31,461 bases of DNA from a virus (taxonomy: Duplodnaviria > Heunggongvirae > Uroviricota > Caudoviricetes), in IMG/VR virus record IMGVR_UViG_2778261696_000004, positions 1 through 31,461 of that record; one strand, given 5' to 3'. Every line of letters starts with the position of its first letter. Position 1 is the first letter of the stretch. This document shows, piece by piece, positions 28,316 through 29,872 of this stretch. Made by a program: the position numbers and the translations under genes. The notes beneath the pieces are model-generated. The model worked only from the letters and a program-made list of their open reading frames with translations. It was not told the DNA's origin and did no database searches.

Positions 28316-28494
28316 TTATTAACCTCATTACTGTTTGGGAAATAAGGTTGCGATGCCGGGTGCTTCCCGGTGTCCTTTAGCTGGTTATCCACCGTGGACG
28401 GGGAAATAAGGAGAAATAATGGACAGATATAACCATTTCCCCGCGTGCGCTTAGCCGCATTCACCGCAACGGAAAGAGCATTCCTGGTGGACCT

Positions 28495-28519
28495 GTAGAT
28501 TGGGATATGAACCCGTTAC
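28495..28519. repeat. 25-bp direct repeat copy 1 (GTAGATTGGGATATGAACCCGTTAC)
   Basis: Near-identical copy (1 mismatch) at 28775-28799; each contains a T-arm-like GGGTTCATATCCC on the minus strand. Confidence 0.7.
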
Positions 28520-28774
28520 AGGAGAATGCTCTTACCTGTTACGTGCTCCGTTTCGTGGAGCTAACGGCGGGTGATCGGGCCGCACCAGACTGGACTTATT
28601 TCAGCGTTATGCTCATGCCAGAGAATCAAACTGTGATGGTCGGTGCTGAACTCCGACACAGGGTTGTAGCAAGCCCCGCAAAGCGCGCACTACTGTAGTT
28701 GCGGCACATCAGCCTGTGCATTCACCACAATGTTGAGAACACTGGTTGTCACGCTGCAACGCAACATTTATTCG

Positions 28775-28799
28775 TAGATTGGGATATGACCCCGTTACG
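28775..28799. repeat. 25-bp direct repeat copy 2 (GTAGATTGGGATATGACCCCGTTAC)
   Basis: See copy 1. Flanked by inverted repeats 28727-28744 and 28800-28817 (CAATGTTGAGAACACTGG / CCAGTGTTCTCAACGTTG). Confidence 0.7.
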
Positions 28800-28960
28800 C
28801 CAGTGTTCTCAACGTTGTAGTGCCGGTTACGGTTCCGGCCAGGCCTCTTCCTCAACGGGGTGTTCTCCATACGGACTACCGTTTATTGGTCGTTCCTGCG
28901 GTTTATGTTGTGAAGCCAGATGCTTATCTTCTGGTTGCTTCAAAGAGCTGCACTTCATCA

Positions 28961-29040
28961 CAACGGTAAGGGTACTTCGTAGGGATTCGAACCCTCTGCC
29001 AAGCTCGGCGATCTCCGACGTCGCAAAATACCCTTACCTG
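28961..29040 (-). ncRNA. tRNA-like element or degenerate tRNA: 10-bp terminal stem plus canonical T arm, no recognisable anticodon arm
   Basis: Minus strand GGTAAGGGTA…AGGGTTCGAATCCCT…TACCCTTACC: perfect 10-bp end pairing and a TΨC-like TTCGAAT loop, 6 nt downstream of tRNA-Thr. Confidence 0.4.
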
Positions 29041-29046
29041 TTGTGC

Positions 29047-29122
29047 TGGTGCCGATTAACGGACTCGAACCGCTGACATCCTGCTTACAAGGCAGGCGCT
29101 CTACCAACTGAGCTAAACCGGC
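29047..29122 (-). tRNA. tRNA-Thr (anticodon UGU)
   Basis: 76-nt cloverleaf: acceptor GCCGGTT/AATCGGC, anticodon loop CUUGUAA, T loop TTCGAGT, encoded CCA. Confidence 0.85.
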
Positions 29123-29124
29123 AT

Positions 29125-29200
29125 TGGCGATGGTGGATGGATTTGAACCATCGACCCGTTGATTAACAGTCAACCGCTCTAACCGCTGAGCTACACCATC
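29125..29200 (-). tRNA. tRNA-Asn (anticodon GUU)
   Basis: 76-nt cloverleaf: acceptor GATGGTG/CACCATC, anticodon loop CUGUUAA, T loop TTCAAAT, encoded CCA. Confidence 0.85.
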
Positions 29201-29872
29201 ACTTGCCGGGTACGTCTCCGGCGAGGGCTTCCACCTCCGTATGCTTTTCGGCGCACCGCGCCCTGGCTGCAATTCGGTAACAGGGGATGCACAACCCTGG
29301 CTTCCAGCGTGATTAGCGCCTTCAGCATGACGGGATATACCCGTAAATTCGTGGAACTGTACCCAAAGTGCTGTTAAGCACCGCTGTTACGCTGAAAAGA
29401 AAACGCAACAGGAAAGGACGCTGACCAACAGATGGCCCCTTCTCGTTCATCTGGTTAATCACACCAGCGCCCTTACCTGTTGTGCCTCCCCGTTCCCTAA
29501 TACACAGACGGGGACACTCTGCGGTCGATTTTTTGACGGGGGACGACTCATACCCCGTGGCATCTGGCTTCTTAGGCCGCTACCATCATCAGATCATCGT
29601 TTGCATTTACTTTAATGGTCAGTTTCTAAACCGCCGCAAAGTCGCTAACCATGACGAAAACCCTGAAAAAAACGCCCACCCGAAGATGGGCAAACTGGAA
29701 GCTCGTAACGCACTTCGGCGTTGCCACTTAGGCGCATGGTCAACCTGGCAACTCGGTGGTTTGTCTGGGAGGACTAGGCCCAGCCATGCTTACCGCCGCG
29801 CCTGTCGCGGCTAACAGCTAAATCGCTCTATAAATCACGATTCATTGAGGCGATATTACACTAATAAATTTA

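Follow-up and report, generated by a model that had tools for sequence, protein, structure and literature searches.

Hairpin cassettes and a tmRNA-complementary element as probable exchangeable RNA modules in the untranslated region of the phage P1 ban operon

We consider it probable that the untranslated stretch of approximately 1.5 kb around the tRNA genes of phage P1, which belongs to the C1-controlled ban operon, consists of RNA modules exchanged among enterobacterial phages, namely hairpin cassettes and a tag element, and is not a tRNA graveyard. The analysed DNA (IMGVR_UViG_2778261696_000004, 31,461 nucleotides, hereafter the window) shows 99.8% identity to phage P1 (NC_005856). It contains four hairpin cassettes (M1–M4), whose structure is conserved as RNA on the strand carrying the tRNAs. 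It also contains a leader element of approximately 175 nt (29663-29487, minus strand), located just past an intrinsic-terminator-like hairpin, in which we observed complementarity to the host tmRNA, a conserved reading frame and a pseudoknot. The original prediction had proposed undescribed structured RNAs processed from the tRNA transcript; the four cassettes and the tmRNA-directed element are such RNAs, and we infer the processing of the transcript itself. Rfam 15 and the annotations of the examined records describe neither the cassette nor the tag element, and a literature search on the arm sequences, phage tmRNA-like RNAs and P1 transcriptomes returned nothing relevant. We could not find an earlier description of an element antisense to tmRNA that carries its own tag template.

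The untranslated region of the ban operon

Annotations were transferred from the P1 record NC_005856 by adding 26699 to the locus coordinates (Table 1). ARAGORN and Rfam place intact tRNA-Asn and tRNA-Thr genes inside the interval for which the original prediction had listed three tRNAs; the third (Ile2, CAU) is present and known from P1 but lies outside that interval. ARAGORN labels this trnI gene as Met. Both untranslated stretches have folding energies below those of shuffled sequences (z = -3.5 and -5.2). The original prediction saw no plausible minus-strand ORFs in the leader and the spacer; the minus strand has short ORFs only, the longest of which (104 aa) spans the tRNA genes.

Table 1. 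Features of the ban operon region (positions in the window; R1, cassette covariance model; R2, tag-element covariance model).
Feature	Position	Strand	Remarks
Pban promoters and bivalent C1 operator (Op72), ban-operon transcript start	29852..29897	-	annotation transferred from NC_005856
Leader segment overlapping annotated 'dicF-like region' (29656-29757)	29716..29810	-	
P1-specific hairpin CUGGGCCUAGUCCUCCCAG then ACAAACCACCG	29753-29784	-	
Intrinsic-terminator-like hairpin GCCCAUCUUCGGGUGGGC + U7	29666..29692	-	about 180 nt past Pban
Anti-tmRNA block, 48 nt, GGGUUUUCGUCAUGGUUAGCGACUUUGCGGCGGUUUAGAAACUGACCA	29616..29663	-	complementary to E. coli tmRNA nt 56-106
Predicted block/tmRNA partner segments			GUUUUCGU/ACGAAAAC
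Tag element, extent by R2	29517..29657	-	95.8 bits, E about 5e-20
11-nt spacer UUAAAGUAAAU	29605-29615	-	between antisense block and tag frame
Tag-like frame GCA AAC GAU GAU CUG AUG AUG GUA GCG GCC UAA	29572-29604	-	ANDDLMMVAA*
Pseudoknot: hairpin 29536-29558, loop GUCG pairs with CGAC 29524-29528	29524..29558	-	covariation
Terminal hairpin UCCCCGU..ACGGGGA, loop motif GUGU(G)AUUA	29487..29514	-	loop conserved, stem varies by phage type
Cassette M1, arms 29484-29464 + 29424-29406	29393..29492	-	R1 44.0 bits minus vs 27 plus
tRNA-Asn (GUU)	29125..29200	-	ARAGORN, Rfam, P1 record
tRNA-Thr (UGU)	29047..29122	-	ARAGORN, Rfam, P1 record
Cassette M2	28948..29053	-	R1 58.7 bits
boxA-like run + hairpin GCAGCUCUUUGAAGCAACCAGAAGAUAAGCAUCUGGCUUC	28912..28951	-	shared with SPN9CC and Sashaviruses
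Cassette M3, arms 28822-28800 + 28745-28723, subtype CAACGUUGAG	28715..28828	-	R1 54.2 bits
Small hairpin GCUCCACGAAACGGAGC, 5' of M4	28545-28561	-	
Cassette M4, arms 28543-28524 + 28483-28465	28454..28551	-	R1 69.5 bits
STnc100-like segment, M4 to tciA	28349..28468	-	RF02076 29.3 bits, E = 7.6e-4
Annotated ORFs upl (28507-28698), plp (28699-29076)	28507..29076	+	antisense to M4, M3, M2, tRNA-Thr
trnI/Ile2, anticodon CAU, third tRNA	27540..27615	-	ARAGORN, Rfam, P1 record

The P1 record also holds the plus-strand ORFs upl and plp, which the original prediction did not mention. Were these real genes, they could be the source of the conservation of the spacer; they are annotated in P1 and RCS47, and the upl frame is open in CMS-2020a. 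We find this hardly credible, and upl and plp are, judged from their sequences, probably not genes. A Pfam search gave no family for either, and the substitutions lack a third-position bias (1/8/9 by codon position for upl against CMS-2020a). The plp ORF starts with TTG, runs antisense to tRNA-Thr and is interrupted by stops or indels in P7 and Ro157, and both ORFs lie antisense to cassettes that are conserved by RNA pairing (see below).

The leader segment at the 'dicF-like region' shares about 76% similarity with noncoding DNA from lambdoid phages, Stx2c-converting ones among them, and the DicF model found no match in that region at E ≤ 10. The terminator-like hairpin is comparable to tR' after lambda PR'. 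The STnc100-like match covers model positions 31-147 of 206, with a score below the gathering threshold of 47. None of the DicF, YrlA and C4 families matched over the cassettes or the tag element.

Hairpin cassettes

The ACAGGTAAG repeats form the 5' arms of the four cassettes. The motif ACAGGTAAGRG occurs exactly three times, always on the minus strand (29031-29041, 29470-29480 and 28529-28539), in agreement with the predicted count, although the third copy had been placed about 15 nt off. Allowing one mismatch raises the count in the window to six, against 0.5 expected, a number reached by none of 100 shuffles. We rejected the repeated motif as a tRNA part; it is a hairpin arm. The cassette stem of approximately 20 bp is nearly invariant and comprises 6 bp, a bulged A, 2 bp, a U·U mismatch and at least 10 bp (canonical form CACAACAGGUAAGAGCAUUG ... 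CAGUGCUCUUUCCGUUGUG). Compared with the canonical arms, those of M1 differ by two fully compensated pairs, and 22 of the 23 positions are paired in M3. The interiors of about 40–130 nt vary freely in sequence between copies, and 48 unrelated interiors were found between identical arms. A constant interior length was rejected as whole cassettes span 69 to 179 nt.

In an alignment of 43 cassette sequences, 97.4% of the cells are paired, with both-sided changes in 10 of the 18 pairs; none of 500 shuffles matched this level, and slid controls reached 38–62%. Each copy has 18–28 paired positions, and the arms pair in all minimum-free-energy folds. Among 15 arm types, the operon strand shows 33 G·U pairs and 10 A·C mismatches, and where one side alone has changed, the result is nearly always a wobble on the transcribed strand. 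The covariation and the excess of G·U over A·C show that the structure exists at the RNA level on the tRNA-carrying strand. The covariance model R1 scores 44–87 bits on the forward strand and 22–32 bits on the reverse strand, and it found exactly four matches in the 31-kb window, all on the minus strand.

The hairpins might instead act as DNA, either as a recombination 'boundary' or as mobile palindromes resembling MITEs or attC sites, with the RNA fold being incidental. Invariant arms around unrelated interiors would fit such elements, as would the mosaic nature of the region among P1-like phages, a deletion between the repeats in SJ46, and the AAC...GTT ends and length of 80–130 bp, which are reminiscent of attC. 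However, the cassette ends GCACAAC...GTTGTGG do not match the attC core RYYYAAC/GTTRRRY. The 33-to-10 ratio, the wobbles on the transcribed strand and forward model scores about twice the reverse ones likewise speak against DNA-level action. All four P1 cassettes, the lambda copy and the Q/S-flanked copies are moreover oriented with transcription, and we regard a role as DNA as improbable.

The cassette family is limited to Enterobacterales, where it occurs in hundreds of phages: matches of the genome-contig pattern scan outside this order were chance hits or likely contamination, and the model confirmed Enterobacterales loci only, apart from two probable contaminants. The lambda cassette (44,787-44,865) lies directly 3' of tR', and many loci have Q-type genes upstream and holin genes downstream. 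Cassettes also start 2–4 nt past the CCA of tRNA-Thr and tRNA-Ser, and in one locus (L026) the end of isrJ lies directly 5' of a cassette. An Rfam search in gathering mode on 17 related loci placed no family over the cassette.

The cassette interiors bear on the proposal that P1 has lost tRNA genes and that the hairpins and T-arm-like pieces are what is left of them. The tRNA-like minihelix predicted 3' of tRNA-Thr is M2, which starts 2 nt past the CCA of that gene; its stem of 16–20 bp is real (29045-29029 paired with 28974-28959) and encloses a D-arm-like hairpin and a canonical T-arm (AGAGGGTTCGAATCCCTA, 28997-28980). A T-loop-like motif is present in 8 of 52 folded cassette sequences, and P1 relatives carry an extra tRNA in this region, tRNA-Ser in P7, D6 and Cyrano or tRNA-Tyr in Ro157 and CMS-2020a. 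Against decay, neither ARAGORN nor the Rfam tRNA model (E ≤ 10, lax filters, 27300-30100) found anything beyond the Asn, Thr and CAU tRNAs. The arms are conserved in lambda and hundreds of phages, with T-arm-like hairpins in a minority of interiors and most interiors unrelated to tRNA. The M2-type interior recurs in Enterobacter phage BUCT554 and in the viral contigs L063 and L113, and as it is conserved in unrelated phages, it is maintained and not decaying. The tRNA differences between the relatives are, from sequence comparison, swaps of whole modules and not decay in place. The predicted 25-bp repeats are present (28495-28519 and 28774-28798, 96% identical, containing GGGTTCATATCCC / GGGGTCATATCCC), one inside the M3 interior and the other inside the M4 interior, but the GGGTTCATATCCC hairpins taken for T-arms are not T-loops, relatives carrying GGGCCCATAACCC or GGGCTCATAACCC there. 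We therefore consider tRNA decay, which these observations have largely refuted, very improbable.

As for the function of the conserved RNA stems, we infer that they may be double-stranded sites at which the transcript is processed or insulated, with RNase III as the most likely enzyme. Cleavage would release tRNAs and small RNAs from the long untranslated transcript and shield their ends. Like an RNase III substrate, the cassettes contain double-stranded RNA of about two helical turns inside the transcript. They resemble the RNase III stems of rRNA operons, T7 early RNA and the lambda N-leader and late leader in their 18–28 bp with a mismatch and a bulge, as well as in flanking functional RNA in a long polycistronic transcript, beside tRNAs. 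The title of Daniels et al. (1988; PMID 2849240) reports that the Q-dependent late RNA of lambda has processing sites for RNase III, which need not lie in the lambda cassette. Unlike known RNase III stems, the cassettes have near-invariant arms across phages and a freely exchanged enclosed RNA, and cleavage is predicted here. RNase III has little sequence specificity, and the near-invariance of the arms is therefore not explained by this enzyme. In SJ46, a deletion between the M3 and M4 interiors has produced a hybrid, so this phage can do without intact M3 and M4 stems.

Alternatively, the hairpins or their 3' arms could be antitermination signals of the boxA/nut or put type, acting against Rho across the 1.5 kb. 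A long untranslated transcript needs protection from Rho, and cassettes are found where operons are antiterminated, in leaders like the late one of lambda. The 3' arm UGCUCUUUCC is similar to the rrn boxA consensus UGCUCUUUAACAA, and P1 28912-28951 (GCUCUUUGAA and a hairpin) matches a region 24 nt upstream of N in the P22-like phage SPN9CC. To our knowledge, P1 has no N protein. Yet NusB/E binds boxA as a single strand, and here the boxA-like run lies inside a stable stem of about 20 bp; arms of the subtypes CUCAACGUUG and CCGCCCAUCCUGUUAC keep the pairing and lose the boxA resemblance; and the Q-modified polymerase of lambda requires no further signal. Antitermination thus seems quite improbable to us.

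A leader element complementary to tmRNA

The 48-nt block at the 5' end of the tag element is complementary to the part of E. coli tmRNA comprising the 3' half of PK1, the upstream single strand, the resume codon and codons 1–6. RNAduplex gives -46.3 kcal/mol for the P1 duplex. In all 40 representatives, the predicted duplex starts at tmRNA nt 56; it ends at nt 102–129 (105–107 in 37) and has 33–41 pairs with a mean dG of -45 kcal/mol, against -30 for the complement or reversal of ssrA and -25 for the element's own downstream part. The antisense site is thus fixed, conserved in homologues and beyond the controls, while the complementarity includes A/U-rich stretches and its shuffle controls were mononucleotide shuffles only. 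On the same strand, the similarity between the element and ssrA is weak (z about 2) and confined to the tag.

Downstream of the block, the element resembles tmRNA (SsrA) itself. It contains a frame opening with GCA AAC GA, without a start codon, which ends in hydrophobic residues and AA; the P1 frame encodes ANDDLMMVAA, compared with ANDENYALAA of the host E. coli. The frame comprises exactly 10 codons and a stop in all 100 distinct copies, which are not independent events, as the carriers are all related. The 17 tag variants, e.g., ANDDVVLMAA and ANEEMYLAVA, include synonymous changes, and the last codon is Ala in 99%, written GCC, GCG or GCT. Upstream, there is an in-frame UAG and neither AUG nor GUG, and some copies have a 1-nt indel. 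In 97 of the 100 copies, a GAAAC motif ending 6 nt inside the end of the block is found 17 nt 5' of GCA, which defines the 11-nt single-stranded spacer between the block and GCA, equal in length to that of tmRNA. The U and A at -5/-4 correspond to U85 and A86 of tmRNA. As in tmRNA, the stop codon lies in a small hairpin (29566-29578 in P1) and a pseudoknot follows downstream, for which 4 of 4 pseudoknot pairs and 3 of 5 stem pairs covary, with 94.6% of cells paired (equalled by 0 of 500 shuffles). Covariation across relatives, suggested as a check of the original prediction, is thus observed for both the cassette stems and this pseudoknot. The R2 model, built without any P1-like sequence, detects the P1 element and does not match E. 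coli ssrA. No intramolecular PK1 was found in the element; the antisense block occupies its place. An alternative AUG frame in AAAUGCAAACGA was discarded, as hand translation of five sequences gave unconserved peptides of 5–9 aa.

The tag element differs from tmRNA in having no detectable tRNA-like domain, i.e., an acceptor stem with G3·U70, a T-arm and a 3' CCA, and ARAGORN reported none. A GAAAAC..CCA acceptor 3' strand was absent within 2.5 kb of the tag element in all 132 copies searched, and an AGUUUU/AGAAACU helix showed no covariation on inspection of 40 representatives. CUGGG..CCCAG-ACAAACC-A-CCG as an upstream 'acceptor piece' was rejected, being confined to P1-like phages. RF00023 did not match P1, the tmRNA_permuted model RF04321 scored 24.1 bits on P1 and 33.4 on PD38, below its threshold of 47, and the remaining Rfam tmRNA models gave at most 22 bits.

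Carriers of the tag element include P1, HK620, Det7 and N4-like and SSU5-like phages. A blastn search with the 676-nt leader returned 371 phage records from unrelated families, where most of the matches listed cover the tag-element segment, and at least 142 of 5426 E. coli genomes contain the HK620-type element, which is never annotated.

In P1, the element lies 3' of the terminator-like hairpin and its transcription therefore requires read-through. The element RNA would dock on the host tmRNA by base pairing and would at least mask the tmRNA template, inhibiting trans-translation. It may also substitute its own template, borrowing the alanyl-tRNA-like domain of the host. Either inhibition of trans-translation or re-programming of the tag is plausible from the sequence. 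A 'template-swap' RNA acting in trans, which pairs with tmRNA in place of PK1, hides the resume codon and feeds in its own 10-codon template, is a tentative proposal that we hold to be unlikely. As no tRNA-like domain was found, such substitution would need a previously unobserved mechanism.

The element could also be a mere antisense inhibitor or sponge of tmRNA, or a relic of a captured ssrA, with a frame that is never translated; we view this as a serious possibility, if not a likely one. The block alone would be enough to cover the resume codon, and the missing tRNA-like domain, acceptor strand and ARAGORN or RF00023 match agree with it. However, frame length, stop position and the final Ala are kept across 17 variants with synonymous changes, the spacing and the U/A at -5/-4 mimic the frame-setting context of tmRNA, and the element's own codons have diverged just enough to avoid pairing with its own antisense block.

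Relation to known RNAs and implications

The partial match to tmRNA_permuted recalls two-piece tmRNAs, in which a coding piece is base-paired to an acceptor piece; here, the 'acceptor piece' would be the complete tmRNA of the host. Unlike tmRNA, the element is phage-borne, and its 5' part is antisense and not homologous to host tmRNA. Phage RNAs touching trans-translation are also represented by the ssrA genes of the mycobacteriophage Bxz1 group and Bacillus phage G. One survey covering 543 phage genomes (PMC4131195) listed no enterobacterial phage among their carriers; it proposed that the DS6A molecule, a tRNA-like domain only, inhibits tmRNA. Phage ssrA is a complete tmRNA or a lone tRNA-like domain, whereas the tag element is the converse, a template with an antisense block.

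Cassettes of the M2 type resemble YrlA in their long terminal stem, D-arm-like hairpin and canonical T-arm. However, RF02553 does not match over M2, its sole match (25.6 bits) covering two true tRNAs, and most cassettes have no tRNA-like interior. E. coli is not known to encode Rsr. The P1 leader shares its niche, past an antiterminated or repressor-controlled promoter and near tRNAs and TerB-like genes, with the PR' 'moron' sRNAs (lambda 6S RNA, StxS, IsrJ/IsrK, STnc100/PasD, AgvB/AsxR), none of whose families covers the cassette or the tag element.

Few genomes have been studied as thoroughly as those of P1 and lambda, yet these elements are unannotated in all records examined. For P1, our analysis drops two doubtful genes, upl and plp, and replaces the 'dicF-like' label, for which the DicF model gave no support. 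The cassette offers a reading rule for the long 'empty' leaders of temperate phages, which would be small-RNA operons with a common separating stem, and it may serve as a portable part of natural origin for insulation or processing. If the tag element acts on tmRNA, phages would control or re-programme trans-translation via RNA, adding a new layer to the phage–host conflict, and why some phages depend on ssrA would become testable. If the template swap is true, stalled products would receive ...MAA, ...VAA or ...AVA instead of ...LAA, a phage-chosen tag that may alter their proteolytic fate, and the two-piece tmRNA would be built from a host and a viral molecule.

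Layout of the untranslated ban operon

The window is bacteriophage P1 (99.8% identity to NC_005856), and the region studied is the untranslated portion of its minus-strand ban operon, which C1 controls.

Features of the untranslated ban operon, in transcript order
Feature	Position	Strand	Remark
dmt end		-	first in the transcript
Pban and Op72 operator	29852-29897	-	after the dmt end
Leader		-	650 nt, between Pban/Op72 and trnA
M1	29393-29492	-	hairpin cassette, R1
trnA (Asn)	29125-29200	-	ARAGORN, Rfam, P1 record
trnT (Thr)	29047-29122	-	ARAGORN, Rfam, P1 record
M2	28948-29053	-	hairpin cassette, R1
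Spacer		-	730 nt, between trnT and tciA
M3	28715-28828	-	hairpin cassette, R1
M4	28454-28551	-	hairpin cassette, R1
tciA, tciB, tciC		-	after the spacer, before trnI
trnI	27540-27615	-	after tciC, before ban
ban		-	last in the transcript, after trnI

The original prediction read this region as decayed tRNA genes and/or undescribed structured RNAs. Its observations were borne out: the motif recurs three times, always on the minus strand and more often than expected by chance; the two 25-bp repeats and the hairpin with a T-arm after trnT are present; and the minus-strand ORFs are short and implausible. Both untranslated blocks also fold more stably than their shuffles (z = -3.5 and -5.2). The decayed tRNA genes had to be rejected, because ARAGORN called no tRNA beyond the known three and the Rfam tRNA model (E<=10, 27300-30100) found no further one. 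The undescribed structured RNA was upheld and takes the specific form of hairpin cassettes and a tmRNA-directed element.

The tRNA content varies among relatives, with tRNA-Ser in P7, D6, and Cyrano and tRNA-Tyr in Ro157 and CMS-2020a, and pairwise comparison shows that the exchange involves whole blocks. By the same comparison, SJ46 derives from a deletion between the two 25-bp repeats. The DNA between the repeats 28774-28798 and 28495-28519 is absent from SJ46, so that the M3 5' arm is joined to the M4 3' arm in a hybrid that can form neither stem.

The original prediction missed three annotations of the P1 record, namely a "dicF-like region" and the plus-strand ORFs upl and plp. The "dicF-like" label finds no support from the DicF covariance model. 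The two ORFs are probably not genes and probably annotation artefacts; neither has a Pfam family. They run antisense to three cassettes and tRNA-Thr (28507-29076, plus strand), and the plp frame is broken in P7 and Ro157. Downstream of M4, a weak, sub-threshold match to STnc100 (RF02076; 28349-28468, minus strand) begins in the GGUGAAU flank of the cassette, just upstream of the TerB-like tciA. A 2026 preprint describes the STnc100-TerB neighbourhood also in Stx prophages.

Hairpin cassettes with exchangeable interiors

Each copy of ACAGGTAAG forms the 5' arm of a long hairpin, four of which occur in P1. The covariance model of these cassettes (R1) detects exactly four copies in the 31-kb window, on the minus strand every time. 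The same kind of hairpin adjoins the tRNA cluster of the unrelated SSU5-like phage-plasmids Cyrano and CMS-2020a, where the distal stem sequence differs but the arm complementarity is kept. Among the viral contigs listed, the nearly invariant arms, CACAACAGGUAAGAGCAUUG ... CAGUGCUCUUUCCGUUGUGGUG(AAUGC), enclose 48 mutually unrelated interiors, and the full length of a cassette is 69-179 nt.

In a 43-sequence alignment, the stem comprises 6 bp, a bulged A, 2 bp, a U·U mismatch, and 10 bp; 97.4% of the cells are paired, and 10 of the 18 pairs show changes on both sides. None of 500 shuffles was as good, and slid registers reached 38-62%. Where only one side of a pair changes, the result is nearly always a wobble on the operon strand, and G·U exceeds A·C by 33 to 10 among 15 arm types. 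R1 scores 44-87 bits on the forward strand versus 22-32 bits on the reverse. Pairing, covariation, the wobble excess, and the strand asymmetry of R1 thus indicate that the cassette is an RNA structure on the tRNA strand. We rank lower a reading at the DNA level, which is at odds with this asymmetry.

Upstream of most cassettes, small hairpins with a 5-bp stem and a 7-nt purine-rich loop (GCUCCACGAAACGGAGC, CCUCGGAAGAGACGAGG, GCCUGGAAAGACAGGC; e.g., 28545-28561 and 28822-28839) or a terminator hairpin lie 2-3 nt before the 5' arm. Past the 3' flank GGUGAAU there is often a conserved hairpin, GCGCAGGCUGAUGCGC.

Pieces of the spacer match 150 phage records by blastn (Escherichia, Salmonella, Klebsiella, Enterobacter, Cronobacter, and Citrobacter), and a 3'-arm pattern scan returned at least 119 viral contigs. 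The family is confined to Enterobacterales, being confirmed in Klebsiella, Citrobacter, Kluyvera, Serratia, Rahnella, Rouxiella, Pantoea, Erwinia, Sodalis, Chimaeribacter, and Superficieibacter, and, apart from two probable contaminants, arm-pattern matches outside Enterobacterales were not confirmed. Rfam has no family that covers the cassette, E. coli RefSeq genomes leave it unannotated, and a full-text literature search with the arm sequences returned no relevant paper.

Lambda (NC_001416) carries one cassette (44,787-44,865, 69.4 bits), starting a few nucleotides past the U-run of tR' in the Q-S late leader; 6S RNA ends at tR' in lambda. In many viral contigs, lambda Q or a Q-like ORF precedes the cassette and a holin follows it, and in P1, P7, and other phages a cassette begins 2-4 nt past the CCA of tRNA-Thr or tRNA-Ser. 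The canonical lambda cassette (44,779-44,873; 980-1074 of locus L133) overlaps the dubious "orf-64", and the P7/D6 cassette following tRNA-Ser has as its interior the sequence that comes after the lambda cassette (44,866-44,930). In the prophage locus L026, the terminator of the Salmonella island sRNA isrJ (RF01393, 66 bits; 7428-7504) directly precedes a cassette, which suggests that isrJ is a PR'-type short transcript of its prophage.

The stems of 18-28 bp flank exchangeable RNAs within long untranslated transcripts, bordering tRNAs and terminator-ended short RNAs. This anatomy is that of RNase III processing stems, as in rRNA operons and T7 and lambda transcripts, and we infer that the cassettes likely act as such stems. 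A 1988 paper, going by its title, reportedly concerns RNase III processing sites in the lambda Q-dependent late RNA. The near-invariance of the arms is beyond what RNase III explains, and a second constraint, e.g., a protein partner or recombination homology, may act on them. The 3' arm resembles boxA, but the boxA-like run is buried inside the stem, and we rank a boxA function below RNase III processing.

Separately, GCAGCUCUUUGAAGCAACCAGAAGAUAAGCAUCUGGCUUC (28912-28951, minus strand), a boxA-like run with a hairpin also present in Sashaviruses, matches DNA of the P22-like phage SPN9CC that lies 24 nt upstream of its gene N (L010, 2001-2057). It may act as a nut-like element or as one for N-leader processing in P1, which is not known to encode N.

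A leader element complementary to host tmRNA

The first (5') 45-50 nt (29663-29616 in P1) of the leader element, termed the tag element, are complementary to host tmRNA (SsrA), the ribosome-rescue RNA. According to RNAduplex, the duplex starts at tmRNA nucleotide 56 in all 40 representatives and ends at 105-107 in 37 of them, with 33-41 predicted pairs and dG averaging -45 kcal/mol. In controls, dG was about -30 when ssrA was replaced by its complement or its reversal and -25 when the target was the downstream part of the element itself; shuffle z-scores were -2.9 to -9.1 (10 representatives). The target, CGGUUGGCCUCGUAAAAAGCCGCAAAAAAUAGUCGCAAACGACGAAAACUA, spans the 3' half of the pseudoknot PK1, the upstream single strand, the resume codon (nucleotide 90), and codons 1-6. 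The invariant blocks GUUUUCGU, GCGAC, and UUUGCGG oppose ACGAAAAC, GUCGC, and CCGCAAA of tmRNA.

The antisense block is followed by 11 nt and then GCA, which is the PK1-to-resume-codon spacing of tmRNA, and U and A at -5 and -4 match U85 and A86. The common core, ...UAAAU GCA AAC GAU GAU ... UAA, encodes ANDDLMMVAA* in P1 (ANDENYALAA in E. coli SsrA). A pattern scan returned at least 100 distinct copies; each of the 100 listed has a frame of exactly ten codons before the stop, and together they encode 17 tag variants. Among them, ANDDVVLMAA, ANDDLMMVAA, ANEEMYLAVA, and ANDEQFLAVA are commonest, changes include synonymous ones, and the last codon is Ala in 99% (GCC, GCG, or GCT). The frame lacks a start codon and has an in-frame UAG eight codons upstream; since some copies carry a 1-nt indel immediately upstream, the conserved frame starts at GCA.

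The stop codon lies inside a small hairpin. Downstream of the frame, the loop of a 5-bp hairpin pairs with the following segment to form a pseudoknot, with covariation in 4/4 pseudoknot pairs and three stem pairs (94.6% paired; 0/500 shuffles). The terminal hairpin (29487-29514) has the conserved loop GUGUGAUUAAUAA. This loop (also L255, ~1330-1355) includes UUAAUAA, a string in the double-stop region of E. coli ssrA (GCUUAAUAACC). Rfam tmRNA_permuted matched the template only below threshold (24 bits in P1, 33 bits in PD38). We detected no tRNA-like domain: ARAGORN called no tmRNA, and no acceptor 3' strand was found within 2.5 kb in 132 copies. A P1-specific hairpin, CUGGGCCUAGUCCUCCCAG, followed by ACAAACC-A-CCG (29753-29784, minus strand), looks like a T-arm, acceptor 3' strand, and A-CC, but was rejected as the tRNA-like part, being absent from other carriers.

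Distribution and possible action of the tag element

By blastn, the leader matches 371 phage records of very different kinds, including HK620 (P22-like), Det7 and other Ackermannviridae, N4-like Gamaleyaviruses, Drexlerviridae, Klebsiella siphoviruses, and an Aeromonas phage. The matches listed lie in unannotated DNA or under hypothetical proteins, none under RNA features, and retrieved copies occupy long noncoding gaps (the pR'-S leader of HK620; 1.4-2 kb gaps in Det7 and PD38). Among 5426 complete E. coli genomes, at least 142 contain the element, never annotated. A covariance model trained on 19 copies, none of them P1-like or PD38-like, matched P1 (29517-29657, 95.8 bits, E ~5e-20), PD38 (92.8 bits), and Cyrano and CMS-2020a (57 bits; tag ANEEVYLAVA, promoter-like sequence just upstream), with no match in lambda or E. 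coli ssrA. A 2014 survey of 543 phage genomes found ssrA only in mycobacteriophages and additionally named phage G and DS6A (PMC4131195); our literature text searches returned no description of such an element.

In the N4-like PD38 (L257, 590-2550), the element lies in a 2-kb noncoding region, and on its flanks are several tRNA-like minihelices that have T-arms and end in an encoded CCA, e.g., UUCCGGUG...GGUUCGAGUCCAGACGCCGGAACCA; one, ~110 nt upstream, is called "tRNA-Ala(cgc)" by ARAGORN. At lambdoid loci (e.g., L255, 1100-1195 and 1345-1365), a cassette 3' arm often lies 5' of the element and a 5' arm 3' of it; being complementary, they could form an alternative stem around the whole element.

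The P1 element sits after a terminator-like hairpin (29666-29692), ~180 nt past Pban, so its expression needs read-through, like that of lambdoid genes past tR'. As for the cassettes, we infer function from sequence. At minimum, the element RNA would mask the tmRNA template and inhibit tagging. A role beyond masking is suggested by the conservation of the frame, the spacing, and the pseudoknot: the element may dock on tmRNA, offer its own template, and use the host alanyl-tRNA-like domain. If true, this template offer would constitute a host-virus two-piece tmRNA, adding tags that end in MAA, VAA, or AVA, not LAA.
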